Part shown: positions 209 to 18,304 of the stretch, one piece after another
Layout of the letters: each line of letters opens with the position of its first letter
Numbering within the stretch: the first letter of the stretch is position 1
Origin: a virus
Taxonomy: Duplodnaviria > Heunggongvirae > Uroviricota > Caudoviricetes
DNA: 18,304 nt
IMG/VR virus record: IMGVR_UViG_2529292908_000003
Strand: one strand, 5' to 3'
Made by a program: the position numbers and the translations under genes
Notes under the pieces: model-generated
What the model was told of the DNA's origin: nothing
Seen by the model: the letters and a program-made list of their open reading frames with translations, nothing else
Databases searched by the model: none

Positions 209-262
209 CCTGTTTACCTCTTTCTCAGGAAGTTTAGTCTCCAGGATTCCCGGGGCGGTTCA
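1..262 (-). mobile_element. IS3, partial; left terminal inverted repeat ends at 262 and the element continues beyond the window start
   Basis: Reverse complement of 200-262 reads TGAACCGCCCCGGGAATCCTGGAGACTAAACTTCCTGAGAAAGAGGTAAACAGG followed by ATG of orfA, which matches my recollection of the IS3 left end; not search-verified. Confidence 0.8.
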
Positions 263-1024: not shown

Positions 1025-1086
1025 TCAAAAAACCTCCGCAACCCCATGTTTTCACATAACTGTTGCGTTGACCAATTGAATCTACA
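263..1086 (-). mobile_element. IS30 fragment; left inverted repeat at 1061-1086, distal part replaced by the IS3 insertion at 262/263
   Basis: Reverse complement of 1061-1086 is TGTAGATTCAATTGGTCAACGCAACA, the IS30 terminal repeat as I recall it, followed by the InsI start; element is interrupted after transposase codon 254. Confidence 0.85.
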
Positions 1087-1349
1087 GTTGCTTTTTTTAA
1101 TATATCTCGCTCAAGGCGAGCTTCATTTAACGCCTTACGCAGTTGCAGAATTTCAGATTCCAGTTCAGCCACCGTGCGGGAACCAGGAGTACCGAGCCCT
1201 TTTCTGGCGGCGGTAACCCATTGTCCTAAAGTGCCTTCAGGAAGAGATAATCGGGAAGCGCCTTCACTGATCGAAAGTTGATTTTCAAGAACCGTTCTGA
1301 CAGCTTCGGCTTTGAACTCTTTAGAGTAACGTTGGGTTTTTCTGCTCAT
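1087..1349 (-). pseudogene. IS3-family transposase OrfA (HTH subunit), N-terminal 87 codons, truncated by IS30 insertion
   Basis: ATG at 1347-1349 with AGGAG SD; translation MSRKTQRYSKEFKAEAVRTVLENQLSISEGASRLSLPEGTLGQWV...LERDILKKAT has the IS3-family OrfA HTH and leucine-zipper pattern. The 122-aa ORF in the track is a read-through chimera into the IS30 repeat. Confidence 0.7.
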
Positions 1350-1413
1350 TATTAGCTCCTTCTGATGCCATTCTATTTCAGGAAGGAGTGTCCGTTAAAC
1401 TCAGGCTACCTCA
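1087..1413 (-). mobile_element. IS3-family element (IS600-like), left-end fragment interrupted by IS30; outer boundary near 1400-1413 is approximate
   Basis: OrfA-like ORF begins about 64 bp inside a TG...-type terminus (reverse complement of about 1388-1413 reads TGAGGTAGCCTGAGTTTAACGGACACTCC); the orfA frame is broken by the IS30 terminus at 1086/1087. Confidence 0.55.
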
Positions 1414-1429
1414 GCGTATCTCGGCATCA

Positions 1430-3019: not shown

Positions 3020-3030
3020 TGTTCAACTGT

Positions 3031-3062
3031 CGCCGGTTGTGACTGGTATTCTGCAACCGGCG
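3031..3062 (+). other. Stable stem-loop between the exonuclease gene and xis (9-bp stem CGCCGGTTG/CAACCGGCG, 14-nt loop), no U-tract
   Basis: Perfect 9-bp inverted repeat read directly; function (processing or pause site, weak terminator) is unknown. Confidence 0.3.
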
Positions 3063-3091
3063 CTCGTCTGATGTAAGAGATAAAGAAATCG

Positions 3092-3342
3092 ATGAGCGAA
3101 GTAATCATGATTGTCTCTCCCGGCAAATGGGTATCCGAAGAGCAGTTAATTGCGCTGAAAGGAATAAAAAAGGTACGTTAAAAAAGGCCCGGGAAAAATC
3201 GTTTATGGAAGGAAGGGAATATAAGCATGTCGCTCATGACGGTATGCCATGGGATAACAGTCCATGCTTTTACAACCTGGAAGAAATTGATCGCTGGATT
3301 GAGCGCCAGGCATCAGCGAGACCAAGACGTCATCTTACTTGA
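3092..3342 (+). CDS. Excisionase (Xis)-like gene split across two frames; a -1 shift at A_AAA_AAG (3166-3172) joins a 27-codon N-terminal ORF (3092-3181) to the 56-codon C-terminal frame
   Basis: Joined product MSEVIMIVSPGKWVSEEQLIALKGIKK + GTLKKAREKSFMEGREYKHV...DRWIERQ has the lambda-Xis-like pattern including a GREY motif (lambda Xis DGREYLF), and lies immediately upstream of the integrase. Confidence 0.5.
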
Positions 3343-3361
3343 CTAAAAGCCACACTAACTA

Positions 3362-4657
3362 ATGAGAGAAGTTGAAATGAAATATCCGACAGGCGTGGAA
3401 AACCATGGAGGGAAATTACGTATCTGGTTTGTTTATAAAGACGTAAGAGTCAGGGAAAATCTGGGGGTTCCTGACACAGCAAAAAACAGGCGCGTTGCAG
3501 GTGAACTACGCTCCTCTGTTTGTTACGCAATAAAAACTGGTGTTTTCGACTATGCAAAACAGTTTCCCTCCTCACGCAATCTGGAAAAATTTGGTGAGGC
3601 CCGACAAGATTTAACCATAAAAGAACTGGCTGAAAAATTTCTGGCACTGAAAGAAACTGAAGTCGCCAAAACATCACTCAACACATACCGTGCCGTCATC
3701 AAAAATATCCTGAGCATAATCGGTGAAAAAAATCTTGCCTCATCGATTAATAAAGAAAAATTACTGGAGGTTCGTAAAGAGTTACTGACTGGATACCAGA
3801 TCCCCAAAAGTAACTATATTGTTACACAACCAGGGAGATCGGCTGTAACTGTAAATAATTACATGACAAATCTTAACGCCGTGTTCCAGTTTGGTGTTGA
3901 TAACGGTTACCTGGCAGATAATCCGTTTAAGGGGATCTCGCCATTAAAGGAATCAAGAACCATTCCGGATCCTCTTTCGCGGGAAGAATTTATCCGTCTT
4001 ATCGATGCGTGCAGAAATCAGCAAGCAAAAAATTTATGGTGTGTTTCTGTTTATACTGGAGTTCGCCCTGGTGAGCTGTGTGCACTTGGATGGGAGGACA
4101 TAGATCTGAAAAATGGAACAATGATGATCAGGAGAAATTTAGCAAAAGACCGTTTCACGGTACCAAAAACACAGGCGGGAACCAATCGGGTCATTCATCT
4201 TATTAAGCCAGCAATCGACGCTCTCCGGAGTCAGATGACATTAACGAGACTGAGCAAAGAGCATATCATTGATGTTCACCTCAGAGAGTATGGCAGAACA
4301 GAAAAACAAAAATGCACCTTTGTTTTTCAACCTGAAGTGTCAGCGAGAGTAAAAAATTATGGTGACCATTTTACCGTTGACTCAATAAGGCAGATGTGGG
4401 ACGCAGCGATAAAACGTGCCGGACTCCGCCATCGAAAATCATATCAGTCGAGACATACTTATGCCTGCTGGTCGCTGACAGCTGGTGCTAACCCGGCATT
4501 TATAGCAAACCAGATGGGCCATGCAGATGCGCAAATGGTATTTCAGGTATACGGAAAATGGATGTCTGAAAACAATAATGCACAGGTAGCTTTGTTAAAT
4601 ACACAGTTAAGCGAGTTTGCCCCAACCATGCCCCATAACGAAGCAATGAAAAATTAA
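3362..4657 (+). CDS. Lambdoid prophage tyrosine integrase (corresponds by synteny to the integrase next to rspB in E. coli K-12); alternative start at 3377 (MKYPTGV)
   Basis: 431-aa ORF with N-terminal arm-binding-like region and C-terminal tyrosine recombinase signature (RHTYA box, catalytic-Tyr region QVYGKW); last gene before host DNA. Confidence 0.9.
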   Translation: MREVEMKYPTGVENHGGKLRIWFVYKDVRVRENLGVPDTAKNRRVAGELRSSVCYAIKTGVFDYAKQFPSSRNLEKFGEARQDLTIKELAEKFLALKETEVAKTSLNTYRAVIKNILSIIGEKNLASSINKEKLLEVRKELLTGYQIPKSNYIVTQPGRSAVTVNNYMTNLNAVFQFGVDNGYLADNPFKGISPLKESRTIPDPLSREEFIRLIDACRNQQAKNLWCVSVYTGVRPGELCALGWEDIDLKNGTMMIRRNLAKDRFTVPKTQAGTNRVIHLIKPAIDALRSQMTLTRLSKEHIIDVHLREYGRTEKQKCTFVFQPEVSARVKNYGDHFTVDSIRQMWDAAIKRAGLRHRKSYQSRHTYACWSLTAGANPAFIANQMGHADAQMVFQVYGKWMSENNNAQVALLNTQLSEFAPTMPHNEAMKN

Positions 4658-4796
4658 TTTAATATTTATCAAATAGTTAACACGCATGACTCTTGAAATC
4701 CATAAATTCAAGCGCAGTGCCCAGCCATCCCGATACTGCTGCTTTCACCAAATCCTTAGTGCTTCTTTCGTGTTTTTCTATTGTCATAATGGTTAT

Positions 4797-4831
4797 CTCT
4801 AAAAAAGAGGTAAGATGCGTACTACTTACTC
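4797..4831 (-). terminator. Putative rho-independent terminator of rspB
   Basis: On the minus strand, 13 nt after the rspB stop: stem GAGTAAG / CTTAC(C)TC with a 10-nt loop, followed by UUUUUU (plus-strand A run 4801-4806). Confidence 0.45.
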
Positions 4832-4844
4832 GCCGTTATTGGTA

Positions 4845-5864
4845 TTATTCAGAAAAAGTGAGTAAGACTTTGCAGCAATGTTTTTGATCCTGTTCAAATA
4901 AACTAATGGCATCAGCAACATGCTGGAAATCAAACGTATGGGTAATTAATTTTTCTGGTTTAATTAACCCTTTACTTAACCAGTCGATAACGATCGGGAA
5001 TTTATTTGCATTTAAGCGTGAAGAGAAAATAGAGAGTTCTTTTCCGGTAATTCCTTGCTGAATCACTTCAGACGGTTCACTGGAGAACCCCATCAATACA
5101 ATACGTGCCGCTGGAGAAGCCAGCGTTACGGCCTCTTTCAGGATAGAAGGATGACAAGCCGCATCGATAATTAATGTCGGCTTGATGCCTTTTTCAGTGA
5201 AAATCTCGCCAAGCGGTGTCTGGCTGTTATTAATCGCCCAGTCAGCCCCGCTCTCTTTCGCTTTTTCCAGTCGTTCATCAATGCGATCGGCAACAATCAC
5301 ATTTTTAACGTTATAGACGCCTTTTAATACCTGAACGATCGTCAGGCCGATTGGACCGGCACCATAAACCAGAACGGTATCATTTTCAGTCGGTTGACCA
5401 TGTCCGGTTACGTTAGCCGCAATGGTAAAAGGTTCGATCATTACCGCATATTGATCGGCCACTGCTTCAGGAATTTTCCACGCATTTTTTGCCGGAACCA
5501 CGGCATATTCACTGAAACCACCGTCAGCGTGCACACCTAATACAGCCAGTGTCGTACAAACGTTCGGTTTACCTATAGAGCACGGATAGCAATGCCCACA
5601 GCTGACCACCGGATCGACAGCAACACGTTCACCGACTCTGGCGCTTTCCACGCCTTCACCCACTGCATCAATGACGCCAAAGAATTCATGACCAATGACG
5701 CGCGGATATTTCGCAAAAGGATTATGCCCACGATAAATATGGCTATCTGAACCACAAATTCCGGCAAGTTTCACTTTTACTCGTACTTCACCCGCTGACG
5801 GGGTGGGTATTTCACGTTCGACAATCGCCAGTTGATTCGGTTTTTCAATTAATATGCTTTTCAT
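4845..5864 (-). CDS. rspB: Starvation-sensing protein RspB, Zn-dependent dehydrogenase (MDR family)
   Basis: Translation MKSILIEKPNQLAIVEREIPTPSAGEVRVKVKLAGICGSDSHIYRGHNPF... with GHE and GxGxxG motifs; AGGAG SD before the ATG at 5864; the track ORF has an 8-codon upstream extension. Confidence 0.9.
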   Translation of the reverse strand: MKSILIEKPNQLAIVEREIPTPSAGEVRVKVKLAGICGSDSHIYRGHNPFAKYPRVIGHEFFGVIDAVGEGVESARVGERVAVDPVVSCGHCYPCSIGKPNVCTTLAVLGVHADGGFSEYAVVPAKNAWKIPEAVADQYAVMIEPFTIAANVTGHGQPTENDTVLVYGAGPIGLTIVQVLKGVYNVKNVIVADRIDERLEKAKESGADWAINNSQTPLGEIFTEKGIKPTLIIDAACHPSILKEAVTLASPAARIVLMGFSSEPSEVIQQGITGKELSIFSSRLNANKFPIVIDWLSKGLIKPEKLITHTFDFQHVADAISLFEQDQKHCCKVLLTFSE

Positions 5865-5875
5865 TATCTTACTCC

Positions 5876-7090
5876 TTACCAGTTCCACAGCGTGCCATCT
5901 TCCAGACGTGCGACTGGTAGATAAGCAGGTTCATAGGGATATTTCGCCGCCAGCTTTTCATCGAATTCGATACCAAGACCCGGTTTGTCTCCCGGATGCA
6001 TATAGCCGTTATCGAAAGTCCAGTTGTGCGGGAAGACTTCGAGCATTTGTTCGGAATAACCCATGTATTCCTGGACACCGAAATTGGGGACCCACAGATC
6101 AAAGTGCAGCGCCGCAGCCATGCAGACTGGTGACAAATCGGAAGGACCGTGTGAGCCAGTACGTACCTGATACAGCGAAGCAAAATCGGCAATCCGGCGC
6201 ATACCGGTAATTCCGCCTGCATGGGTCAGCGTGGTGCGGATATAATCGATGAGTTGCTCTTCAATCAGTTGTTTGCAGTCCCAGATGCTGTTGAAGACTT
6301 CACCCACTGCGATGGGTGTGACGGTATGTTGGCGAATGAGACGGAAGCATTCCTGGTTTTCCGCAGGCGTCGGGTCTTCCATCCAGAACATGCGATAATC
6401 TTCAATGCTTTTACCAAAGCGCGCCGCTTCAATAGGCGTTAAGCGATGGTGCATGTCATGCAGCAAATGTTCATTAAAACCAAACTTGTTACGTACCGCG
6501 TCAAACAATTTCGGCATGAAATCGAGGTATTTCTCCGTCGACCACAGCTGCTCTTCCGGCCACTGTCCTTTGGTTGCGGGTTCATAAGCCAGACCTTTAC
6601 CTTTCGACATGCCGTAGGTGGTTTTCATACCAGGGATTCCGCACTGCACGCGGATGGCTTTGAATCCAAGCTCTTGATGACGGGCATAATCATCCAGAGC
6701 TTCATCAATACTGTGACCGGTGGTATGGCAATAAACCATCACCCCTTCACGAGACGCGCCGCCGAGTAACTGGTAAAGCGGCATGTTGGCAGCTTTGGCT
6801 TTAATATCCCACAGCGCCATATCAACCGCTGAAATGGCCGACATCGTAACCGGACCGCGACGCCAGTAAGCACCTTTATAGAAAAACTGCCAGATATCTT
6901 CGATACGGTGCGCATCGCGACCAATAAGCTGCGGACAAAGGTGATCCTGCAAATAAGAGGCCACGGAAAGCTCACGTCCATTGAGGGTGGCATCCCCAAG
7001 GCCCGTAATACCGTCCTCAGTGGTGATTTTTAATGTGACGAAATTACGCCCCGGACAGGTAACAAAAACTTCAGCCTTTACGATCTTCAT
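5876..7090 (-). CDS. rspA: Starvation-sensing protein RspA, enolase-superfamily mannonate dehydratase-like
   Basis: Translation [40 protein letters not shown]...; 11-bp gap to rspB (operon); AGGAA SD; the track ORF has an 11-codon upstream extension. Confidence 0.9.
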
Positions 7091-7295
7091 GTTCGATTCC
7101 TTGCATCGCTTGTCGTGATGCATGAAATCTACGCAACTGAGCTACTACCATACAAGTATAAAGATCGAAAAAAGCCGGAGTGATCACAAAAAAAGGCGTA
7201 TATTTGCGCTGTGAATGGTTGACAAAAGATGAAATAGAATACCTTTTGTCAGCTGACACTTCCTCTTATCTTATTGATAAAATGGATTTATGTTC

Positions 7296-7622
7296 CTACG
7301 TGCGCCCCCAGCCCGCAACAATGATCAACATGCCGCAAAGCGCAATCAACGCACCCGTCCAGTCATAAAGAGTCAGTTTCACGCCATCCACAACGCGCAG
7401 CCACATCAACGCCGTGCAGACATAAACGCCACCATAAGCCGCGTAAACACGCCCACTCGCCGCTGGATGCAACGTTAACAACCAGACAAACAGCGCCAGT
7501 GAAATCCCCGCCGGAAGCAACAGCCAGATACTGGCGTTTCGTTTTAACCACAACCAGGGCAGAAAGCATCCAATAATTTCACACAGCGCAGTAGCAAAAA
7601 ATAGTAACGTTGTTTTAATCAT
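7296..7622 (-). CDS. ynfA: UPF0060 family inner-membrane protein YnfA (four predicted TM helices)
   Basis: 108-aa hydrophobic [48 protein letters not shown]...; position between rspA and ynfB as in E. coli K-12. Confidence 0.85.
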
Positions 7623-7756
7623 CTTTGTCTCTTATTGACATCATGTATAGTTATAGGGCGACATAATATCATCAATATAAACACCCTCCTGGTACGTTTT
7701 GCGTCCGCAGTGGATGGTGTAGAATCACCTTTAATCATTCATACAGGGAATGAATT

Positions 7757-8098
7757 ATGAAAATCACTCTCAGCAAACGAATCGGCCTGCTCGCTATTCT
7801 GCTGCCTTGCGCACTGGCATTGAGCACAACTGTTCATGCCGAAACTAACAAACTGGTGATTGAGTCTGGCGACAGTGCACAAAGCCGCCAGCACGCCGCT
7901 ATGGAAAAAGAGCAATGGAATGACACGCGCAATCTGCGCCAGAAAGTGAATAAACGCACTGAAAAAGAGTGGGATAAAGCCGACGCCGCTTTTGATAACC
8001 GCGATAAATGTGAGCAAAGCGCCAACATCAATGCCTACTGGGAGCCCAATACTTTGCGCTGCCTGGACCGTCGAACTGGCCGCGTTATTACCCCCTAA
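7757..8098 (+). CDS. ynfB: Secreted small protein YnfB (UPF0482) with N-terminal signal peptide
   Basis: [30 protein letters not shown]... signal peptide; AGGGAA SD; 34 bp upstream of speG. Confidence 0.85.
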
Positions 8099-8132
8099 CC
8101 TGTTATTGATTTAAGGAATGTAAGGACACGTT

Positions 8133-8693
8133 ATGCCAAGCGCCCACAGTGTTAAGCTACGCCCGCTGGAGCGTGAAGATTTACGCTATGTACATCAACT
8201 CGACAATAACGCCAGTGTGATGCGTTACTGGTTTGAGGAACCCTACGAAGCCTTTGTTGAACTCTCTGATCTGTATGATAAGCATATTCACGATCAGAGC
8301 GAACGGCGCTTTGTGGTGGAATGTGACGGCGAAAAAGCCGGTCTGGTGGAGCTGGTGGAAATTAACCATGTTCATCGCCGCGCAGAATTTCAGATAATTA
8401 TCTCCCCGGAGTATCAGGGGAAAGGTCTGGCAACCCGTGCCGCCAAATTAGCAATGGACTATGGCTTTACCGTTCTCAATCTCTATAAGCTGTATCTGAT
8501 CGTTGATAAAGAGAATGAAAAAGCGATTCACATTTACCGCAAGCTTGGCTTTTCGGTTGAAGGTGAATTGATGCACGAGTTCTTTATTAATGGTCAATAT
8601 CGTAATGCCATTCGCATGTGTATATTCCAGCATCAGTATCTGGCAGAGCACAAAACACCGGGTCAGACTCTCCTGAAGCCGACCGCACAATAG
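8133..8693 (+). CDS. speG: Spermidine N1-acetyltransferase SpeG (GNAT family)
   Basis: 186-aa translation [41 protein letters not shown]... matches SpeG from memory. Confidence 0.92.
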
Positions 8694-8695
8694 CA

Positions 8696-9406
8696 TTAAT
8701 AATAATCGATCGTATTTTTGATGGTGTAAACCCGTTCGACGGCGGGTTTTACTCCTTCATCAACAATGATTAGCTGACAGTCCACCGGATTAGCGTGACT
8801 GTCATATTCACAGCTCTGTTTTACATTACCAACCCGTTGATTATTCAGTAAAGTAACCGCTGTGTAATCTAATTTTTTGATCGGATCCGTTGATGGCGTG
8901 GCGCTGACAGATAATGTTTTGTCGTTACTTTTCGTGGTTTTACCCAGCGGATAACCCTGATCATCATAGCGATATTCCATCTGCATTTGTTTGCTGCTGG
9001 CTTTAATCACGAAGCCATTATCATCGGTTTCCCAACTCACCCCGGCAGAAGGTAATTCTGCTAGCTGGCATTTTCCCTGTAAACGTACTCTCTTCTCCAG
9101 CGTCTCGGCATCACGGTAATAATTGGCGTCCAGTACCAGAGCGACCACGGTATTATTTTCCAGATCCAGTAATTCGAGTGAATCAAAACAGCCTTCTTCC
9201 GACAAAGTCCCAGAAACACGTTTCGTCACTTCACCTTGCTCATCCATTAATGTCTGAGTGAAATCTTTTACCGGACCACGCAGCGGATCAAAATCGAATT
9301 CATTAGAGAAACTGGCCATCTCAGGGGTAAATGAAAGTGTTACCTCTGTGCGGTCACATCCTGTGAGGAATATCGCGAGTAAGCATGGTAGTAATTTGTA
9401 TTTCAC
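8696..9406 (-). CDS. ynfC: Lipoprotein YnfC (UPF0257), GTG start
   Basis: From GTG at 9404-9406 the product begins (M)KYKLLPCLLAIFLTGCDR with a lipobox LTGC; GGTGA SD 5 nt upstream. The ATG at 9442 in the track would put 12 residues ahead of the signal peptide. Confidence 0.8.
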   Translation of the reverse strand: MKYKLLPCLLAIFLTGCDRTEVTLSFTPEMASFSNEFDFDPLRGPVKDFTQTLMDEQGEVTKRVSGTLSEEGCFDSLELLDLENNTVVALVLDANYYRDAETLEKRVRLQGKCQLAELPSAGVSWETDDNGFVIKASSKQMQMEYRYDDQGYPLGKTTKSNDKTLSVSATPSTDPIKKLDYTAVTLLNNQRVGNVKQSCEYDSHANPVDCQLIIVDEGVKPAVERVYTIKNTIDYY

Positions 9407-9513
9407 AACAGTCACCAGAGAGTAGAGATGATTCTCAATCATAGTAGCAAATACAGTACTTTACACGTTAAATGCTATGCTTAAAGAAGTTATCTTCGCG
9501 TAAGGAGCTTATG

Positions 9514-9819
9514 ATGAAACTCTCAACCTGCTGTGCCGCGCTTCTGCTCGCCCTCGCCTCACCCGCGGTACTCGCCGCGCCGGGATCCTGTGAGCGCATA
9601 CAGAGCGATATATCACAGCGCATTATCAATAATGGCGTACCCGAAAGCAGCTTCACGTTAAGTATTGTACCCAATGACCAGGTTGATCAGCCTGATTCCC
9701 AGGTCGTCGGCCATTGCGCTAATGATACGCATAAAATTCTCTATACCCGCACCACCAGCGGTAACGTCTCTGCTCCCGCGCAGTCTAGCCAGGATGGCGC
9801 GCCTGCCGAACCGCAGTAA
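9514..9819 (+). CDS. ynfD: Secreted small protein YnfD (DUF1161) with signal peptide
   Basis: MKLSTCCAALLLALASPAVLAAPGSCERIQSDISQRIINNGVPE...; AAGGAG SD 6 nt before ATG 9514; upstream in-frame ATGs lack good spacing. Confidence 0.85.
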   Translation: MKLSTCCAALLLALASPAVLAAPGSCERIQSDISQRIINNGVPESSFTLSIVPNDQVDQPDSQVVGHCANDTHKILYTRTTSGNVSAPAQSSQDGAPAEPQ

Positions 9820-9836
9820 CACATTATCGACTGAAC

Positions 9837-9858
9837 GCCGGATATGACAAATCCGGCG
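9837..9858 (+). terminator. Hairpin after ynfD (8-bp stem CGCCGGAT/ATCCGGCG, 6-nt loop) with a weak U-tract; possible terminator
   Basis: Perfect inverted repeat 17 nt after the ynfD stop, followed by AUUUGAA. Confidence 0.35.
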
Positions 9859-9904
9859 ATTTGAACATACAACATAATCCCACCTTATTACTCATACCCT
9901 TCTA

Positions 9905-9918
9905 TTGATATGGATTAA
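9905..9918. promoter_or_regulatory. Candidate FNR box TTGAT-atgg-ATTAA upstream of ynfE
   Basis: 9 of 10 match to the FNR consensus TTGAT-N4-ATCAA, centred about 106 bp upstream of the ynfE ATG; TAGACT -10-like hexamer about 24 bp downstream. ynfEFGH is reported as anaerobically expressed. Confidence 0.4.
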
Positions 9919-10017
9919 TAATTCTTAACCCAAAATGGGTAGACTCCCTCTATTGTTAGCGCGCTAAATATTCAATATATAAACTTTTATATAACGATAA
10001 AGAACAGGGAGTGAGTT

Positions 10018-12444
10018 ATGTCCAAAAATGAACGAATGGTGGGCATCAGCCGCAGAACACTCGTTAAATCTACCGCGATAGGTTCTCTGGCGCTGGCTGC
10101 AGGCGGTTTTTCTTTGCCGTTTACCCTGCGCAATGCAGCAGCAGCGGTACAACAGGCCCGCGAAAAAGTGGTCTGGGGTGCCTGTTCCGTCAACTGTGGT
10201 AGCCGCTGTGCACTTCGTCTACATGTTAAAGATAATGAAGTGACCTGGGTGGAAACTGACAATACCGGCAGCGATGAGTACGGCAACCATCAGGTACGCG
10301 CCTGTTTGCGCGGTCGCTCCATCCGCCGGCGTATTAATCATCCCGATCGCTTAAATTACCCAATGAAACGCGTGGGCAAACGCGGCGAAGGCAAATTCGA
10401 ACGGATTAGCTGGGATGAAGCCCTGGATACTATCGCCAGTAGCCTGAAGAAAACCGTCGAACAATATGGCAATGAGGCTGTATATATTCAGTACTCTTCG
10501 GGGATCGTTGGCGGCAATATGACCCGCTCTTCGCCATCAGCCTCGGCGGTCAAACGCCTGATGAACTGCTACGGCGGTTCACTCAACCAGTATGGCTCCT
10601 ACAGCACTGCGCAAATTTCCTGTGCCATGCCCTACACCTACGGCAGTAATGATGGCAACAGCACCACGGATATTGAAAACAGCAAGCTGGTCGTGATGTT
10701 TGGTAACAACCCGGCAGAAACCCGCATGAGCGGTGGTGGCATCACTTATCTTCTTGAAAAAGCGCGCGAGAAATCGAACGCCAAAATGATTGTTATCGAT
10801 CCGCGATATACCGATACGGCTGCCGGTCGTGAAGACGAATGGCTCCCTATTCGCCCGGGCACCGATGCCGCGCTGGTTGCGGGTATTGCCTGGGTATTGA
10901 TTAACGAAAATCTCGTTGATCAACCTTTTCTCGATAAATACTGCGTCGGCTATGACGAAAAAACCTTACCCGCAGATGCACCCAAAAATGGTCACTATAA
11001 AGCCTATATTCTTGGTGAAGGTGACGATAAAACAGCGAAAACGCCGCAGTGGGCTTCGCAAATTACCGGTATCCCGGAGGACCGTATCATCAAACTGGCG
11101 CGTGAAATTGGCACAGCAAAACCCGCTTATATCTGCCAGGGCTGGGGGCCACAACGCCAGGCAAACGGCGAACTGACTGCACGCGCTATTGCTATGTTAC
11201 CTATTTTGACGGGCAATGTCGGCATCAGCGGCGGAAATAGTGGCGCGCGTGAATCGACCTATACCATTACCATAGAACGCCTGCCGGTGCTGGATAATCC
11301 GGTCAAAACGTCAATCTCCTGCTTCAGCTGGACAGATGCTATCGATCATGGTCCGCAAATGACGGCAATCCGCGACGGCGTCCGCGGCAAAGATAAACTG
11401 GATGTGCCCATTAAGTTCATCTGGAACTACGCGGGAAATACCCTCGTTAATCAGCATTCTGACATCAACAAAACGCATGAAATTCTGCAGGACGAATCGA
11501 AATGCGAAATGATTGTGGTCATCGAAAACTTTATGACCTCATCGGCAAAATATGCCGACATTCTGCTGCCAGACCTGATGACCGTTGAGCAGGAAGATAT
11601 TATTCCTAACGACTACGCCGGTAACATGGGATATCTCATTTTCCTCCAGCCTGTCACCAGCGAAAAATTCGAACGCAAACCGATTTACTGGATCCTGAGT
11701 GAAGTCGCGAAACGTCTTGGACCTGACGTCTATCAAAAGTTCACAGAAGGTCGCACGCAGGAACAATGGTTACAACATCTGTACGCCAAAATGCTTGCCA
11801 AAGATCCGGCGTTACCGTCTTACGACGAACTGAAAAAAATGGGTATCTATAAGCGTAAAGATCCCAATGGCCATTTTGTCGCCTACAAAGCATTTCGTGA
11901 CGACCCCGAGGCAAATCCACTTAAAACGCCTTCCGGTAAGATTGAAATTTATTCCAGCAGGCTGGCGGAAATTGCCCGTACCTGGGAACTGGAAAAAGAT
12001 GAAGTGATAAGCCCATTGCCAGTTTATGCCTCAACCTTTGAAGGCTGGAACTCCCCTGAACGTAGAACCTTCCCACTGCAACTGTTTGGTTTCCATTACA
12101 AATCCCGTACTCACTCGACCTACGGCAATATTGATCTCCTGAAGGCTGCCTGCCGTCAGGAGGTGTGGATCAACCCTATAGATGCGCAGAAACGTGGGAT
12201 TGCCAACGGCGATATGGTGCGGGTGTTTAACCATCGTGGCGAAGTTCGGCTACCAGCCAAAGTAACACCACGTATTCTCCCTGGAGTTAGCGCTATGGGC
12301 CAGGGAGCCTGGCACGAGGCCAATATGTCTGGCGATAAAATCGACCATGGCGGCTGTGTGAATACGCTAACCACTCTGCGCCCTTCACCACTGGCGAAGG
12401 GAAACCCGCAGCACACTAATCTGGTCGAGATCGAAAAAATATAA
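10018..12444 (+). CDS. ynfE: Tat-exported molybdopterin oxidoreductase catalytic subunit YnfE (DMSO reductase family, putative selenate reductase)
   Basis: 808-aa ORF; twin-arginine signal ISRRTLVKSTAIGSLALAAGG; N-terminal Cys cluster CSVNCGSRC; GGGAG SD. Confidence 0.93.
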   Translation: MSKNERMVGISRRTLVKSTAIGSLALAAGGFSLPFTLRNAAAAVQQAREKVVWGACSVNCGSRCALRLHVKDNEVTWVETDNTGSDEYGNHQVRACLRGRSIRRRINHPDRLNYPMKRVGKRGEGKFERISWDEALDTIASSLKKTVEQYGNEAVYIQYSSGIVGGNMTRSSPSASAVKRLMNCYGGSLNQYGSYSTAQISCAMPYTYGSNDGNSTTDIENSKLVVMFGNNPAETRMSGGGITYLLEKAREKSNAKMIVIDPRYTDTAAGREDEWLPIRPGTDAALVAGIAWVLINENLVDQPFLDKYCVGYDEKTLPADAPKNGHYKAYILGEGDDKTAKTPQWASQITGIPEDRIIKLAREIGTAKPAYICQGWGPQRQANGELTARAIAMLPILTGNVGISGGNSGARESTYTITIERLPVLDNPVKTSISCFSWTDAIDHGPQMTAIRDGVRGKDKLDVPIKFIWNYAGNTLVNQHSDINKTHEILQDESKCEMIVVIENFMTSSAKYADILLPDLMTVEQEDIIPNDYAGNMGYLIFLQPVTSEKFERKPIYWILSEVAKRLGPDVYQKFTEGRTQEQWLQHLYAKMLAKDPALPSYDELKKMGIYKRKDPNGHFVAYKAFRDDPEANPLKTPSGKIEIYSSRLAEIARTWELEKDEVISPLPVYASTFEGWNSPERRTFPLQLFGFHYKSRTHSTYGNIDLLKAACRQEVWINPIDAQKRGIANGDMVRVFNHRGEVRLPAKVTPRILPGVSAMGQGAWHEANMSGDKIDHGGCVNTLTTLRPSPLAKGNPQHTNLVEIEKI

Positions 12445-12504
12445 CCCACGACAACCATAAATTCTGGCATGACATTTTGTTTGAAAAGCAATAAGTGAGT
12501 AATG

Positions 12505-14928
12505 ATGAAAATCCATACCACAGAGGCGCTCATGAAGGCTGAAATCAGCCGTAGAAGTCTGATGAAAACCTCCGCACTTGGCAGTCTTGCGCTGGCAAGC
12601 AGTGCTTTCACTCTGCCATTTTCCCAAATGGTCCGGGCGGCAGAGGCTCCGGTAGAAGAGAAAGCGGTCTGGAGTTCCTGCACCGTTAACTGCGGGAGCC
12701 GCTGTCTGTTACGTTTGCATGTGAAAGATGACACCGTGTACTGGGTGGAGTCTGATACGACAGGTGACGACGTCTACGGTAATCATCAGGTTCGAGCGTG
12801 TTTACGCGGGCGCTCTATCCGCCGACGGATGAATCATCCTGATAGGTTGAAATATCCCATGAAGCGCGTCGGCAAGCGCGGTGAAGGTAAATTTGAACGG
12901 ATAAGTTGGGACGAAGCCCTGGATACCATCAGTGATAATCTTCGGCGGATCCTGAAAGATTACGGCAATGAGGCTGTACATGTCCTGTACGGAACAGGCG
13001 TAGATGGCGGAAACATCACCAACTCAAACGTCCCGTACCGTCTGATGAACTCTTGCGGTGGTTTTCTCAGTCGCTATGGCAGCTACAGTACCGCACAGAT
13101 CAGTGCCGCAATGAGTTATATGTTCGGTGCCAATGATGGCAACAGCCCGGATGATATCGCCAATACGAAACTGGTCGTTATGTTCGGAAATAACCCGGCA
13201 GAAACGCGGATGAGCGGCGGTGGTGTCACTTACTACGTCGAGCAAGCCCGCGAACGTTCAAACGCACGCATGATCGTCATCGATCCACGTTATAACGACA
13301 CTGCTGCCGGGCGTGAAGATGAATGGCTGCCCATTCGCCCTGGCACCGATGGCGCACTGGCCTGTGCGATTGCCTGGGTACTGATTACTGAAAACATGGT
13401 CGATCAGCCATTTCTCGACAAATATTGTGTTGGTTACGATGAAAAAACGCTGCCCGCCAACGCACCACGTAACGCGCATTATAAAGCCTATATTCTGGGC
13501 GAAGGGCCTGACGGCATAGCTAAAACGCCGGAATGGGCAGCAAAAATCACCAGCATCCCGGCAGAAAAAATTATCCAGTTGGCACGAGAGATCGGTTCAG
13601 CAAAACCTGCTTATATTTGTCAGGGTTGGGGGCCACAACGACATTCCAACGGCGAGCAAACATCCCGCGCTATTGCCATGCTTTCCGTTCTCACCGGCAA
13701 CGTCGGCATAAACGGCGGCAACTCAGGCGTACGCGAAGGTAGCTGGGATCTGGGGGTAGAATGGTTCCCGATGCTCGAGAATCCTGTTAAAACGCAGATT
13801 TCCGTCTTTACATGGACAGATGCCATCGACCATGGTACGGAAATGACCGCGACCCGTGATGGTGTTCGTGGAAAAGAAAAACTGGATGTCCCCATCAAGT
13901 TTTTATGGTGCTACGCCAGTAACACATTGATCAATCAACATGGCGACATCAATCACACCCATGAGGTGCTTCAGGATGACAGCAAGTGCGAGATGATTGT
14001 TGGCATTGACCACTTCATGACGGCCTCGGCTAAGTATTGCGATATCCTGTTGCCCGACCTGATGCCAACAGAGCAAGAAGACCTTATCTCTCATGAATCT
14101 GCAGGGAATATGGGCTATGTGATCCTCGCCCAACCCGCAACCTCAGCAAAATTTGAACGCAAACCCATCTACTGGATGCTGAGTGAAGTCGCCAAACGCT
14201 TAGGACCAGACGTTTATCAAACCTTTACTGAAGGTCGCAGTCAGCATGAATGGATCAAATATCTCCATGCGAAAACGAAGGAACGTAACCCTGAGATGCC
14301 CGACTACGAGGAGATGAAAACGACCGGGATCTTTAAGAAAAAATGCCCGGAAGAACACTACGTCGCTTTCCGCGCATTCCGTGAAGATCCACAGGCAAAC
14401 CCGTTGAAAACACCTTCGGGGAAAATCGAAATTTATTCTGAACGACTGGCGAAGATTGCAGATACCTGGGAATTGAAAAAAGATGAAATTATTCATCCCC
14501 TTCCTGCGTATACCCCAGGTTTTGATGGCTGGGACGATCCCCTGCGGAAAACCTATCCACTGCAGTTAACGGGCTTCCATTACAAAGCGCGTACCCACTC
14601 CAGCTACGGCAATATTGATGTGTTACAGCAGGCCTGCCCACAAGAGGTGTGGATCAACCCCATTGATGCTCAGGCACGCGGTATCCGTCATGGCGATACC
14701 GTGCGGGTATTTAACAATAATGGAGAAATGCTGATTGCCGCAAAAGTGACTCCGCGTATTCTGCCTGGCGTTACCGCCATCGGGCAAGGTGCGTGGCTTA
14801 AAGCGGATATGTTTGGTGACCGGGTCGATCACGGCGGCAGTATCAATATTCTGACCTCTCACCGCCCTTCACCGCTGGCAAAGGGAAACCCGTCGCACAG
14901 CAATCTTGTCCAGATCGAAAAGGTTTAA
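12505..14928 (+). CDS. ynfF: Tat-exported molybdopterin oxidoreductase YnfF, paralog of YnfE
   Basis: 807 aa from the second ATG (SD AGTGAG 5 nt upstream); Tat motif ISRRSLMK; high similarity to YnfE throughout. Confidence 0.93.
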   Translation: MKIHTTEALMKAEISRRSLMKTSALGSLALASSAFTLPFSQMVRAAEAPVEEKAVWSSCTVNCGSRCLLRLHVKDDTVYWVESDTTGDDVYGNHQVRACLRGRSIRRRMNHPDRLKYPMKRVGKRGEGKFERISWDEALDTISDNLRRILKDYGNEAVHVLYGTGVDGGNITNSNVPYRLMNSCGGFLSRYGSYSTAQISAAMSYMFGANDGNSPDDIANTKLVVMFGNNPAETRMSGGGVTYYVEQARERSNARMIVIDPRYNDTAAGREDEWLPIRPGTDGALACAIAWVLITENMVDQPFLDKYCVGYDEKTLPANAPRNAHYKAYILGEGPDGIAKTPEWAAKITSIPAEKIIQLAREIGSAKPAYICQGWGPQRHSNGEQTSRAIAMLSVLTGNVGINGGNSGVREGSWDLGVEWFPMLENPVKTQISVFTWTDAIDHGTEMTATRDGVRGKEKLDVPIKFLWCYASNTLINQHGDINHTHEVLQDDSKCEMIVGIDHFMTASAKYCDILLPDLMPTEQEDLISHESAGNMGYVILAQPATSAKFERKPIYWMLSEVAKRLGPDVYQTFTEGRSQHEWIKYLHAKTKERNPEMPDYEEMKTTGIFKKKCPEEHYVAFRAFREDPQANPLKTPSGKIEIYSERLAKIADTWELKKDEIIHPLPAYTPGFDGWDDPLRKTYPLQLTGFHYKARTHSSYGNIDVLQQACPQEVWINPIDAQARGIRHGDTVRVFNNNGEMLIAAKVTPRILPGVTAIGQGAWLKADMFGDRVDHGGSINILTSHRPSPLAKGNPSHSNLVQIEKV

Positions 14929-14938
14929 GGAGTAGCCC

Positions 14939-15051
14939 ATGACCACACAATATGGATTTTTATCGATTCCAGCCGCTGTACTGGCTGTAAAACCTGCGAA
15001 CTGGCGTGCAAAGATTTTAAAGTTGGTTACGTATCGTTTAAAATCAATTAG
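14939..15051 (+). pseudogene. ynfG: ynfG remnant (4Fe-4S ferredoxin subunit): frameshift in a T5 run at 14957-14961, then truncation about 26 codons in
   Basis: ATG 14939 gives MTTQYGF; the ferredoxin motif IDSSRCTGCKTCELACKD lies in the +1 frame with no start codon, ends at TAG 15049-15051, and is followed by unrelated DNA. YnfG is about 205 aa in K-12 (recalled). Confidence 0.7.
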
Positions 15052-15095
15052 ATAGCCCGTCATTTCTGCGCTCACACGTCCCAACATTGAAAAAC

Positions 15096-15129
15096 ATGCA
15101 AAGCTTTGTAAGCCGATGCAAAGCTTTGT
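15096..15129. promoter_or_regulatory. Two copies of a 14-bp repeat ATGCAAAGCTTTGT, each containing the perfect 10-bp palindrome CAAAGCTTTG, spaced 20 bp centre to centre; operator-like
   Basis: Palindromes at 15099-15108 and 15119-15128, read directly; two-helical-turn spacing is typical of a dimeric repressor operator pair. Confidence 0.4.
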
Positions 15130-15215
15130 GTGTCTCACTTTTGTCCCAATACCAATCCGAATCCACCCTTTGTCATCATTGAGAAATGGCAAGGAAGAAA
15201 AGGATGTTACTGCAC

Positions 15216-15248
15216 GATTTGACAAATCCGCCAGAGCTATCGCATACT
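15216..15248 (+). promoter_or_regulatory. Promoter-like module A: palindrome GATTTGACAAATC overlapping a consensus -35 TTGACA (15219-15224), 18-bp spacer, -10-like CATACT
   Basis: 16-bp GATTTGACAAATCCGC is identical to 16628-16643; consensus -35; weak -10. Confidence 0.4.
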
Positions 15249-15266
15249 GACCGCACTACAACGTCA

Positions 15267-15302
15267 GCGGTCAACCGCACCCGATAGCTTTGCGGCTTTT
15301 TT
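15267..15302 (+). terminator. Attenuator/terminator-like element A: GCGG-tcaa-CCGC-(12 nt)-GCGG-c-UUUUUU
   Basis: Three short complementary segments allowing alternative pairings, followed by T6; same layout as 16692-16726. Confidence 0.4.
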
Positions 15303-15407
15303 ATGCCTGTTTACAGGTATCGCCATATCAATGGCGGGTCGAGAGAGCCTAATACAATACCCTTTCGGGAAATACGCTCCGCCGTCTGACGCGGTAGTTG
15401 AAGCCCG

Positions 15408-15416
15408 CCCCCCCCC
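15408..15416. repeat. Homopolymeric C9 tract about 40 bp upstream of the antirepressor-like gene A start
   Basis: Nine consecutive C at 15408-15416 (preceded by GCCCG), within the 5' leader of gene A. Confidence 0.9.
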
Positions 15417-15458
15417 ACTAAGGTGGCAGTCAATACTAAAACGTCAGGAGTCATAATT

Positions 15459-15743
15459 ATGACTAATCAACTCATTCCCGTTTTCGATGGAACCATCAAC
15501 AACGAACCAGTTTTACTTTGCAATGCTCGCAATCTGCACGCTTTTCTTGGTATTGGTAAAATGTTTGCTCACTGGATCAAGGACAGGCTGGGTGAATATG
15601 GATTCGTTGAAAATCAAGATTTTGTGATTGCTTGCCAAAATTGGCAAGCAAAAGGTAGAGGCGGTCACAACCGCAAGGAATACCACCTCACCCTCGACAC
15701 AGCCAAAGAGCTTGCGATGGTTGACGACTGCGTCCAATACTGA
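15459..15743 (+). CDS. Antirepressor-like protein, AntA-type N-terminal domain only (truncated paralog of the gene at 15993)
   Basis: AGGAG SD 8 nt before ATG 15459; product MTNQLIPVFDGTINNEPVLLCNARNLHAFLG...HLTLDTAKELAMV is about 60 percent identical to the N-terminus of the next gene, then diverges and stops; 44 bp (15681-15724) are identical to 16209-16252. Confidence 0.6.
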   Translation: MTNQLIPVFDGTINNEPVLLCNARNLHAFLGIGKMFAHWIKDRLGEYGFVENQDFVIACQNWQAKGRGGHNRKEYHLTLDTAKELAMVDDCVQY

Positions 15744-15790
15744 CTATACTCCGCGCCGAGGCCTCGAAAACCTCCCAAAAGCGGATTAAA

Positions 15791-15816
15791 CCAACCCCGT
15801 CAGTGTTGGATTTTTT
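15791..15816 (+). terminator. Putative intrinsic terminator after gene A (stem CCAAC/GTTGG, loop CCCGTCAGT, then A-UUUUUU)
   Basis: Hairpin plus T6, 48 bp after the gene A stop; loop sequence CCCGTCAGT recurs at 16704-16712. Confidence 0.45.
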
Positions 15817-15992
15817 ATGCCTGTTATTCAGTGATAGCACAGTGTGCGGTCACATCCCCGATCAATGTCGGGAGGGCGACGAATACAACACCCGCAAGGG
15901 GAATAAGTCCGCGGTATCTTTTGGGCCGTTTCGAGCCTCCCGGCACCACATCTTGTGGTGGCATTTCTCGAAAAAAGCCAAAGGAGGTCATC

Positions 15993-16622
15993 ATGACCAC
16001 TCAACTCATCCCTGTGTTTGAAGGTACAATCTCAAATGAACCTACGCTTCTGGTGAACGCGCGTGATTTGCATGGATTTTTAGAGGTAGGTAAAGATTTT
16101 TCTAACTGGATACGGGCCAGGCTAAACGAGTATGGATTCGTAGAAAATTTAGACTACATTCTATTTTCGCCAAATTTGGCGAAAACTCCAGGCCGCCGCC
16201 GCAAGGATTACCACCTCACCCTCGACACAGCCAAAGAGCTTGCGATGGTTGAACGTAACGAAAAAGGCCGCCAGATACGCCGCTACTTCATCGAGTGCGA
16301 AAAGAAACTTCGCAACATTCAGCCAGTACAAGCAGAACCACAGCCGCAATTCACAGCCGAGGAAATCATCCTCCTTTGCTACATGCAGCTCTGGATGGAA
16401 AAAGCCCAGGACATCAGCAAACACCTGTATCCCATTATGAAAGAGCTGAACTCCTCATACACGAACAAGCTGTATGACATTGCGTTTGAGACCATCTACA
16501 TGGTGACGAAGAACAGAGACGCGCTACTGAGGGAGGTAACACGTCTCGACATGTCAAGTTCCGTTATCCAGCGGGCCATGCCAATGCTGAAAAGCCTGCG
16601 GGCAAGACAATTCGAGTTTTAA
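15993..16622 (+). CDS. Phage antirepressor-like protein (AntA-type N-terminal domain plus a C-terminal domain shared with the gene at 16877)
   Basis: AGGAGG SD 5 nt before ATG 15993; MTTQLIPVFEGTISNEPTLLVNARDLHGFLEVGKDFSNWIRARLNEYGFVE...HLTLDTAKELAMVERNEKGRQIRRYFIE, and a C-terminus PQFTAEEIILLCYMQLWMEKAQ...LRARQFEF shared with the next gene. The track's 54-codon upstream extension has no RBS. Confidence 0.75.
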   Translation: MTTQLIPVFEGTISNEPTLLVNARDLHGFLEVGKDFSNWIRARLNEYGFVENLDYILFSPNLAKTPGRRRKDYHLTLDTAKELAMVERNEKGRQIRRYFIECEKKLRNIQPVQAEPQPQFTAEEIILLCYMQLWMEKAQDISKHLYPIMKELNSSYTNKLYDIAFETIYMVTKNRDALLREVTRLDMSSSVIQRAMPMLKSLRARQFEF

Positions 16623-16627
16623 GGCCA

Positions 16628-16660
16628 GATTTGACAAATCCGCATTAACGGGGATATATT
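16628..16660 (+). promoter_or_regulatory. Promoter-like module C: palindrome GATTTGACAAATC with -35 TTGACA (16631-16636), 18-bp spacer, -10 TATATT (16655-16660)
   Basis: Consensus -35, 5 of 6 -10; 16-bp identity with module A; begins 6 bp after the gene B stop. Confidence 0.5.
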
Positions 16661-16691
16661 CCGCTCCATGGTGCTGAACACACCTTCGAAA

Positions 16692-16726
16692 GCGGAAACC
16701 GCGCCCGTCAGTCATGCGGATTTTTT
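16692..16726 (+). terminator. Attenuator/terminator-like element C: GCGG-aaa-CCGC-(13 nt, containing CCCGTCAGT)-GCGG-a-UUUUUU
   Basis: Same three-segment layout as 15267-15302 despite different intervening sequence; T6 at 16721-16726. Confidence 0.4.
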
Positions 16727-16876
16727 ATGTCCATTTTTCAGATATGGTCGGGTAGCGCGTATACCGAAAAACAGCCGTAAGGCTAAGGATGCGGGCCGAA
16801 CTTTCGACGGTGTTCAAGTACCCGACCGCCCTGCTGAACACGGGGTGATCTGAACGAATCGAAAGGACATAAAACT

Positions 16877-17509
16877 ATGAGCACTCAACTTGTATTCCAC
16901 AATGTTCAATTCCAGACCGTTCAACGAGATGGTCTACTGTGGTTGTCTGCCCCCCAAATAGCCAGCGCGTTACAATATGCAGATCAAAGCTCGGTAACAC
17001 GCATCTATGCCCGTCACGCAGATGAATTCACAAACGGTATGACAGCCTCGGTCAAATTGACCGATCCTAAAGGGGACAAGCAAGAGACTCGCATCTTCTC
17101 ATTACGCGGCGCTCACCTAATAGCGATGTTTGCTCGAACTCCAATAGCAAAAGAGTTTCGTCGCTGGGTATTGGATATTCTGGACCGTGAAGCTGAAAAA
17201 AGCGCTATACCGCCACAACCTCATATTCAGCCTCAATTCACAGCAGAAGACATCATCCTGCTCTGCTACGTTCAACTCTGGATGGAAAAAGCACAACAAC
17301 TCAGTAAACAGCTATACCCCGTCATGAGAGAACTGAACTCTGATTACTATGGAAAGCTGTTTGATCTGGCCTACGAAACTCGTCATATAACCAACCGGAC
17401 TCGCGACACATTGCTCCGCGAAGCAGCAAAACTTGATCCCGCCAACTATACGGTGCACAGGGCCAGAAGTATGCTGGCGCAACTAAGAGCAAGACAATTT
17501 GAATTCTGA
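16877..17509 (+). CDS. Phage antirepressor-like protein (Bro-N-type N-terminal domain plus the C-terminal domain shared with the gene at 15993)
   Basis: AAGGA SD; N-terminus MSTQLVFHNVQFQTVQRDGLLWLSAPQIASALQY (Bro-N-like); C-terminus PQFTAEDIILLCYVQLWMEKAQ...LRARQFEF about 65 percent identical to the preceding gene. Confidence 0.75.
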   Translation: MSTQLVFHNVQFQTVQRDGLLWLSAPQIASALQYADQSSVTRIYARHADEFTNGMTASVKLTDPKGDKQETRIFSLRGAHLIAMFARTPIAKEFRRWVLDILDREAEKSAIPPQPHIQPQFTAEDIILLCYVQLWMEKAQQLSKQLYPVMRELNSDYYGKLFDLAYETRHITNRTRDTLLREAAKLDPANYTVHRARSMLAQLRARQFEF

Positions 17510-17514
17510 AACCA

Positions 17515-17536
17515 AAGGAGCTTCGGCTCCTTTTTT
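17515..17536 (+). terminator. Rho-independent terminator after the antirepressor array: 7-bp stem AAGGAGC/GCTCCTT, UUCG tetraloop, T-run
   Basis: Perfect stem with UUCG loop and T6, read directly, 6 nt after the stop at 17509. Confidence 0.75.
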
Positions 17537-17556
17537 CATGCCTGAAGGAAAGGAAA

Positions 17557-17778
17557 ATGGCAGATATCATCGACAATGCCGCTGAAATCGAAGAATTGCA
17601 GCGCAATCTCTCCCTGCAAAAATACAAATCCGATAGTAATGCCCCATCTGCTACTCATTGTTGCGAGTGTGGCGATCCGATAGATGAGCGGCGACGCCTG
17701 GCTGTTCGTGGATGCCGAGCTTGCGCCAGTTGCCAGCAGGATATTGAACTTATCAACAAACAGAGAGGTGTGAAGTGA
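17557..17778 (+). CDS. TraR/DksA-family C4 zinc-finger protein (phage TraR-like transcription modulator)
   Basis: AAGGAAAGGA SD; 73 aa with CxxC-x17-CxxC (CECGDPIDERRRLAVRGCRACASCQ), typical of TraR-like proteins of conjugative elements and lambdoid phages. Confidence 0.75.
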   Translation: MADIIDNAAEIEELQRNLSLQKYKSDSNAPSATHCCECGDPIDERRRLAVRGCRACASCQQDIELINKQRGVK

Positions 17779-18092
17779 ACATCAACACCACGATAACGAT
17801 CGATACAGCCCTGAACACCGGCCTGGCGCTCCTTGGTTATTTCTACATCATGTTCTGCAGCGGACGATGGCTGTCACTGTTGTTCATGAAAAAATGGAAT
17901 AAACGCCGTAAGCAGGAGCAACGCCAGAAGGCAATGGATGCATTTTTCGAAGCCTTCGGGATTGACAGCATGGAACCAGGGGATCCAGCTCGCGCAATCA
18001 GCAGAGGGGGCGTAGTAATCCTTGTATATCGGAGTGAAGAGAAAAATGACGATCACAAAACAACGTGTAGAAAAAATCATATATCGCCATGA
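17775..18092 (+). CDS. Hypothetical small protein with one predicted TM segment; GTG start overlaps the TraR-like stop (GTGA)
   Basis: ORF start and stop overlap suggests translational coupling; hydrophobic stretch GLALLGYFYIMFCSGRWLSLLF followed by a basic region; no family recognised. Confidence 0.35.
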   Translation: MNINTTITIDTALNTGLALLGYFYIMFCSGRWLSLLFMKKWNKRRKQEQRQKAMDAFFEAFGIDSMEPGDPARAISRGGVVILVYRSEEKNDDHKTTCRKNHISP

Positions 18093-18304
18093 AATGGGAC
18101 TGAACAGCGATGTCACTGCCGAAGAGGTTTATGACCTGGCTGTACTGGCGCTGAATTTATCAAATATCGCAAACCTGAAGCGATACGAGCTTGATATGGA
18201 TTGTTGTGACTCGTTCGGTCAGGATTGTGGCGCTGACATGACTGAAGATTCTGATGGCGATTATGTTCTGTTTGATGACGTGGTTAAGTTGTTTGAGTTT
18301 GATA
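18046..18304 (+). CDS. Hypothetical acidic protein, 5' part; ORF runs off the window end
   Basis: ATG 18046 with GGAG 11 nt upstream; 86 codons without a stop (MTITKQRVEKIIYRHEMGLNSDVTAEEVYDLAV...DGDYVLFDDVVKLFEF); absent from the ORF track because it has no stop. Confidence 0.45.
   Translation, partial: MTITKQRVEKIIYRHEMGLNSDVTAEEVYDLAVLALNLSNIANLKRYELDMDCCDSFGQDCGADMTEDSDGDYVLFDDVVKLFEFD

Follow-up and report, generated by a model that had tools for sequence, protein, structure and literature searches.

How does ynfG come to break off 28 codons after its start, directly downstream of a complete ynfF, and is a frameshift, a deletion or an insertion behind the break? The initial annotation of this locus had proposed that ynfG was inactivated by a frameshift in a run of T and was replaced after codon ~26 by phage-like accessory DNA. 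Here, the locus is compared with K-12, with related E. coli genomes and with phages over the window, i.e. the whole stretch of 18,304 nt that was analysed.

The ynfG stub and its chromosomal surroundings

The window is E. coli chromosome and carries rspB-rspA-ynfA-ynfB-speG-ynfC-ynfD-ynfE-ynfF in order, followed by the beginning of ynfG. The features next to the break are:

10018-12444: ynfE
12505-14928, plus strand: ynfF, catalytic paralogue of the selenate/tellurate reductase, intact, 807 aa (open reading frame list; RefSeq annotation in O104:H4 and K-12)
14939-15022, plus strand: ynfG', the 5' remnant of ynfG, codons 1-28 and the first base of codon 29, matching K-12 ynfG minus one T
14957-14961, plus strand: T5 homopolymer, a private loss of one base that shifts the frame of ynfG'; T6 in essentially all other E. 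coli

The reading frame of ynfF closes with TAA at 14926-14928, and the ynfG ATG follows ten bases further on at 14939-14941. In tblastn searches with K-12 YnfG, residues 1-7 were found at 14939-14959 and residues 8-28 one frame over at 14959-15021, each with 100% identity, and the protein past residue 28 had no match anywhere in the window. The literal frame of ynfG reads MTTQYGFLSIPAAVLAVKPANWRAKILKLVTYRLKSIR* with its stop at 15053-15055, and the shifted frame, which carries the ferredoxin motif, reads IDSSRCTGCKTCELACKDFKVGYVSFKIN* and closes at TAG 15049-15051. What had been read directly from the sequence (the ynfG start after the ynfF stop, T5 at 14957-14961, the motif in the next frame, the closing TAG) holds throughout; the end of identity, placed at codon ~26, lies after codon 28 (K28) in the alignment to K-12 ynfG, with 15022 as the last identical base. 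Only the first of the Cys groups (C14-C17-C20-C24) is found in the stub. An intact four-cluster subunit of the DmsB/YnfG type, with four Cys groups in one polypeptide of ~205 aa, is absent from the window, which holds residues 1-28 (group I) in two frames. In relatives with T6, ynfG' is a 37-aa open reading frame that terminates at the same TAG (15049-15051), and RefSeq labels it '4Fe-4S binding protein, incomplete, missing C-terminus' in O104:H4, AST198 and TOE17. The exact YnfF protein is present in more than 11,000 blocks of the collection and is thus undiscriminating, yet it was the source of many of the T6 controls used below.

Prophages border the 10-kb rspBA-ynfABCD-ynfEF block on both sides, and each of the two interrupts a gene in its 5' part. 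The second prophage end, at 1388-4787, is unrelated to the first; it carries the xis-int side of a Qin-like prophage, which occupies ydfJ here just as in K-12:

1388-3019: YdfE-like 3'-5' exonuclease, 5'-truncated
3377-4657: integrase of the Qin-like prophage, 426 aa
4695-4787, minus strand: first ~31 codons of ydfJ

At the corresponding place in O104:H4, ydfJ is intact. The O104:H4 backbone shares 99.0% identity with the window, differing from it at 105 positions over 11 kb, lacks its left 4.7 kb and has no Qin-like prophage beside rspB. Insertion sequences are nested at 1-1412, where an IS30-type transposase reading frame (260-1024, minus strand) interrupts an IS600-like element of the IS3 family (orfA 981-1349, minus strand). 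The IS600-like element truncates the exonuclease gene of the prophage, and AST198 has IS600 at the same place.

The junction between ynfG and phage DNA

Phage DNA starts at 15023 where K-12 identity ends at 15022, in agreement with the original reading of a boundary of inserted phage DNA in ynfG. The best phage matches from this base onward are the right ends of the Shigella phages POC-J13 (POCJ13; NC_025434) and 75/02 Stx (KF766125.2). Their terminus at the junction is identical to that of the window for at least the first 77-85 nt, and the POCJ13 record terminates exactly at the base equivalent to 15023. The phage side was assigned from these matches and, for the genes, from RefSeq and Pfam labels in relatives:

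15016-15022, no strand: att core TTTAAAG, 7 bp, common to attB (K-12 ynfG) and attP, with strand exchange within it, from the comparison of attB, attP and the two junctions
15023-15458, plus strand: non-coding integrase-distal arm (P' arm), 100% identical near the junction to the right ends of POCJ13 and 75/02 Stx
15459-15743, plus strand: truncated AntA
15993-16622, plus strand: AntA/P22_AR_C antirepressor
16877-17509, plus strand: Bro-N/P22_AR_C protein
17557-17778, plus strand: TraR/DksA zinc finger
17775-18092, plus strand: DUF4752

The comparison of four sequences accounts for both sides of the break. In K-12 ynfG, attB reads ...GCAAAGATT-TTTAAAG-ATCTTGGCCC..., its right side beginning ATCTTGG, and attP, contiguous over the start/end join of the circular 75/02 Stx record, reads ...GGTGAGCAACAAC-TTTAAAG-TTGGTTACGTATCG... 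(short form AGCAACAAC-TTTAAAG-TTGGTTACG), with the core inside a 14-bp perfect palindrome, CAACTTTAAAGTTG. The junction in the window, ...GCAAAGATT-TTTAAAG-TTGGTTACGTATCG... (short form GATT-TTTAAAG-TTGGTTACG), joins the left side of attB to the right side of attP. The reciprocal junction in O104:H4 2011C-3493, ...GGTGAGCAACAAC-TTTAAAG-ATCTTGGCCC... (short left side AGCAACAAC), joins the left side of attP to the right side of attB. The recombination at TTTAAAG is conservative and site-specific, and it physically splits ynfEFGH-dmsD.

In relatives, a tyrosine integrase gene adjoins the other junction: in O104:H4 and FORC_043 it immediately precedes the displaced ynfG, and in the phage records it sits at 52-1215. 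In both genomes, intD is followed in the same orientation by 5'-truncated ynfG, ynfH and dmsD. The downstream inspection proposed at the outset yields, in relatives, int and then the rest of the operon, with the TTTAAAG core at both junctions (O104:H4). It had been noted that the rest of ynfG, ynfH and dmsD were absent; this is true of the window but does not amount to a loss, since they are displaced to the far prophage end in every relative examined. Likewise, the integration module does lie beyond the window (int is ~60 kb off in relatives) and no integrase is found at this end, but the window does contain one at 3377-4657, that of the Qin-like prophage.

The distance from junction to junction is 59.9 kb in O104:H4 and ~62.5 kb in FORC_043, and a complete lambdoid gene set of a short-tailed phage lies in between. 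From the int end it runs through int, exo/bet/gam, repressor, cro, cII and replication genes and continues with nin, Q, SASA esterase, lysis, terminase, portal and capsid genes; the antirepressor side has a gene for a 2,783-aa LPD38 protein and then the antirepressor cluster as in the window. No stx is annotated between Q and the SASA esterase gene in FORC_043 and O104:H4, the closest complete-genome relatives. The stx-negative 933W-like ynfG prophages of O104:H4 (2011C-3493 and others) and of the Korean FORC_043, FORC_029 and NCCP 13905 share the junction of the window. Over 14600-18304, the FORC and NCCP strains, FORC_043 among them, are 99.9% identical to the window, with a sole gap at the T run (T6 rather than T5). 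RefSeq treats the displaced ynfG inconsistently: in O104:H4 2011C-3493 (L004, 10204-10758) RefSeq/PGAP gives a complete 184-aa 'DMSO/selenate family reductase complex B subunit', an open reading frame that begins at a GTG within phage DNA, and in FORC_043 (L039, 4598-5137) a pseudogene missing the N-terminus.

We interpret the interval with high confidence as the attachment junction on the integrase-distal side (attR by lambda convention) of a ~60 kb 933W-like (Sepvirinae) lambdoid prophage, seated in the ynfG core TTTAAAG. As the second junction is out of view, relatives are the basis for what we infer about this genome, namely its integrase, its reciprocal junction and what became of the ynfG 3' part, ynfH and dmsD. 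In the proposed mechanism, the tyrosine integrase of the phage would insert the prophage at the 7-bp TTTAAAG in codons 27-28 of ynfG. Integration cuts the operon such that ynfE, ynfF and the 28-codon stub remain on the side of the window, and the far side should carry int and then, in the same orientation, ynfG codons 27-205, ynfH and dmsD. The predicted far junction is a lambdoid gene set ending in int, followed by GTGGTGAGCAACAAC-TTTAAAG-ATCTTGGCCCGGAAG, ynfH and dmsD, and precise excision would regenerate GATTTTAAAGATC.

Alternatively, ynfG might have been joined to a prophage already present next to it by a deletion or rearrangement in which its remainder, ynfH and dmsD were lost. The single junction and the missing downstream genes in the window would be compatible with this, and prophages at the ynfG site are internally deleted in some strains. 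However, the break falls exactly on the att core, and it is the same base for base in 51 of 5,426 complete E. coli genomes of varied serotypes and in every fetched draft or metagenome locus that has the Bro-N protein of the window beside ynfF (>10 draft loci), which a random deletion would not reproduce. Moreover, the complete genomes that were inspected have the reciprocal junction together with what remains of ynfG and with ynfH and dmsD, and the phage side coincides exactly with the end of the POCJ13 and 75/02 records, so that we regard a deletion as very improbable. A chance insertion by a transposable (Mu-like) phage or mediated by an insertion sequence would fit an insertion within coding sequence and phage DNA that begins T-TG..., but its probability is negligible: the position is the same in unrelated lineages (O104:H4, O113:H4, Shigella flexneri and S. 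sonnei) and in laboratory MG1655 lysogens, the 7-bp core is common to attP and attB and pre-exists in attP, a tyrosine integrase and no transposase lies at the other end of a lambdoid, 933W-like gene content, and the fixed site in the four-way att comparison refutes Mu-like transposition.

The attachment junction in ynfG is also an already known feature at a described integration site, of which the window is one further instance. Gray et al. found POC-J13 in S1742 of S. flexneri and in ynfG of MG1655 lysogens and concluded that integration was site-specific (PMC4193171), the S. sonnei phage 75/02 Stx integrates at that site, too (PMC5447701), and the Stx1a prophage of O113:H4 RM10410 is listed as extending from ynfG to ynfG (PMC10562709). 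The break had first been described as the boundary of an insertion or deletion; insertion stands, and the breakpoint is not an unexplained one since it is this known att site of the POC-J13/75-02 type.

Within the P' arm, two exact 14-nt direct repeats, ATGCAAAGCTTTGT, lie at 15096-15109 and 15116-15129 (spacing 20 nt, 74-107 nt inside the arm), each containing the palindrome CAAAGCTTTG. Further, the host GATTTTAAA at the junction recurs inverted as TTTAAAATC 15 nt into the phage arm (15013-15045). The repeats and the inverted pair GATTTTAAA/TTTAAAATC are possible sites for integrase, Xis or IHF. GTCCCAA occurs twice within 65 nt of the arm (15078-15084 and 15143-15149), with related TGTCCCA copies at the int side, and was considered as an arm-type integrase site; with 3 occurrences window-wide against 2.2 expected it is not above chance and is a candidate at most. 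A mir-19 match at 15092-15135 (26 bits, gathering score 50) was discarded as noise from the palindromic 14-nt repeats. A promoter and terminator scan of 14850-15550 gave consensus-level matches only, the 'terminator' being the same pair of repeats.

The accessory genes from 15459 to 18304 read inward from the junction and show 0 mismatches to the metagenome scaffold L023. Three plus-strand matches to sRNA-Xcc1 (Rfam RF02221), arranged in tandem, accompany them at 15333-15417, 15867-15952 and 16746-16835, with 49.9 (just under the gathering score), 73.4 and 67.7 bits. Between the end of each copy and the start codon of the next antirepressor-type gene (the truncated AntA, Ant and Bro-N) lie ~40 nt, and the N-termini of the three proteins are alike (MTNQLI, MTTQLI and MSTQL, respectively). 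The pairing is kept in every related locus that was scanned (nine; listed as L002, L013, L019-L024, L027 and L028), and sRNA-Xcc1 was seen upstream of an ORF6N gene in a study of APSE phages. The slot upstream of the ORF6N/P22_AR_C gene in L024 holds isrK and C4 antisense-RNA matches in place of sRNA-Xcc1. C4 is the classical P1 regulator of ant. This suggests that sRNA-Xcc1 may be a cis-encoded leader or immunity RNA of antirepressor cassettes, comparable to P1 c4-ant, rather than a free-standing sRNA. The C9 run at 15408-15416, with which the first sRNA-Xcc1-like copy ends on its 3' side, differs in length between relatives, with C9 in O104:H4, L020, L023 and L025 and C7 in AST198 and TOE17.

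TOE17 and AST198 carry internally deleted remnants of the ynfG prophage, and the element of the window may be neither intact nor inducible.

The shortened T run

The comparison of the T run across strains that had been called for shows a difference that is genuine in the window sequence yet private. A 71-nt query centred on the run was exact in one of 5,318 complete genomes and one position off in the other 5,317, which have T6. The sole T5 genome is SA53-3, an unrelated buffalo isolate in which ynfG is otherwise uninterrupted. T6 is also found in K-12, in O104:H4 and in 23/23 fetched loci that contain the stretch, more than 10 of them with the same prophage junction. The metagenome scaffold L023 has zero mismatches to window positions 14000-18304 and a single gap, the T-run base, and is otherwise identical over 4.3 kb. 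A phase-variable or programmed-frameshift homopolymer would not be expected to look like this, T5 being confined to the window and one unrelated genome.

The initial annotation had held this frameshift responsible for the inactivation of ynfG. No relative with this junction shows the frameshift, and it sits in a 28-codon fragment already cut off by integration, so that it is not the cause. Either way, the change from T6 to T5 is a separate private event in an already orphaned stub, with no added functional consequence while the prophage is present.

The missing base is probably a homopolymer miscall in the source assembly. A second private loss of one base shifts the frame of xis (3092-3342) in the neighbouring prophage, where A7 is contracted to A6 at 3166-3171; 12/12 relatives have A7 and an 83-aa product. 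Two private single-base homopolymer losses next to a handful of private substitutions in ~15 kb form the pattern of homopolymer under-calling. In E. coli mutation-accumulation experiments, natural indels at runs this long arise far less often than substitutions summed over 15 kb.

It is nevertheless quite possible that T5 is a genuine mutation of the strain, i.e. neutral replication slippage in the orphaned stub after integration. The base is absent from the sequence as given, and the same T5 in the uninterrupted ynfG of SA53-3 means that such a slip is possible or that the run is recurrently miscalled. Moreover, the DNA that holds the two private indels, one in the ynfG stub and the other in the xis of a prophage disrupted by insertion sequences, is presumably free of constraint, so slippage would persist there. 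At the remaining homopolymers (37 of at least 6 nt in the window, the contracted A6 included), the comparison with AST198 (L006) and TOE17 (L007) over 1087-16612 revealed no further length difference private to the window. Against a genuine mutation, the change is private (23/23 relatives have T6, one of them the otherwise identical scaffold), and the private indel-to-substitution ratio is much above the natural one known from mutation accumulation. That T5 is real and followed integration, such that the insertion has become irreversible for the host, is a tentative and rather unlikely reading; it would be a small example of the decay of a host gene while interrupted by a prophage. If T5 is real, even a prophage that excised precisely would leave behind a ynfG that is still frameshifted and dead. 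A suitable annotation would name the stretch an attachment junction of a prophage in ynfG, class the 28-codon stub as a fragment of a pseudogene and mark the lost base as a possible error of the assembly.

Consequences of the split operon and comparison with known systems

YnfG has been described as the electron-transfer subunit linking YnfE to YnfH (PMC5203670). The split operon parts YnfEF from an intact YnfG, as had been proposed from the start. In relatives, the displaced part of ynfG begins at F27 and is without Cys group I (C14, C17, C20, C24), so that it should fail to build all four [4Fe-4S] clusters. From what is known of the DmsB family, the displaced YnfG is presumably non-functional as a four-cluster ferredoxin of the DmsB type. 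DmsB/DmsC are reportedly interchangeable with YnfG/YnfH to some degree, a result credited to Lubitz and Weiner (2003), and given this partial interchangeability a complete loss of YnfE/F activity is not certain.

Integration would also sever ynfH and dmsD from the ynfE promoter, leaving them readable only from int or from internal promoters. Since dmsD is essential for the maturation of the DMSO reductase DmsABC (PMC12096835), a polar effect would reach beyond selenate reduction. More speculatively, int might read into the displaced ynfG-ynfH-dmsD, so that the lysogen rewires dmsD expression; lysogeny at ynfG would then alter anaerobic respiration beyond selenate reduction. Hence, YnfEFGH-dependent selenate reduction may be lost in lysogens and expression of the DmsD chaperone may change, which would hardly surprise a specialist.

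Among known phages, POC-J13 and 75/02 Stx are the closest counterparts. Both belong to the genus Diegovirus (Sepvirinae), are Stx1a-converting and integrate in ynfG/S1742 at the same core as in the window. An occupied ynfG site is a marker of lysogeny by this phage group, which has brought stx1a to Shigella flexneri, S. sonnei and some E. coli. Their antirepressor region is ~91-93% identical to the window, and the gene order at this end, i.e. AntA, Ant, DUF4752, Ea22, DUF551 and then the giant LPD38 protein on the opposite strand, is shared by these phages and the element of the window. Compared with them, the element of the window has an additional Bro-N/P22_AR_C cassette, and the match covers 68% of 15040-18304.

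The site further resembles the lambda-type att system in its 7-bp identical core within a 14-bp attP palindrome, its reciprocal hybrid junctions and the integrase gene beside one junction. In lambda, inverted core-type sites flank the 7-bp overlap region, and the palindrome of the ynfG attP is the arrangement that such sites would give. Unlike lambda-type att systems, however, integration here interrupts a protein-coding gene in its 5' part without rebuilding it, and the displaced part is without the first Cys group.
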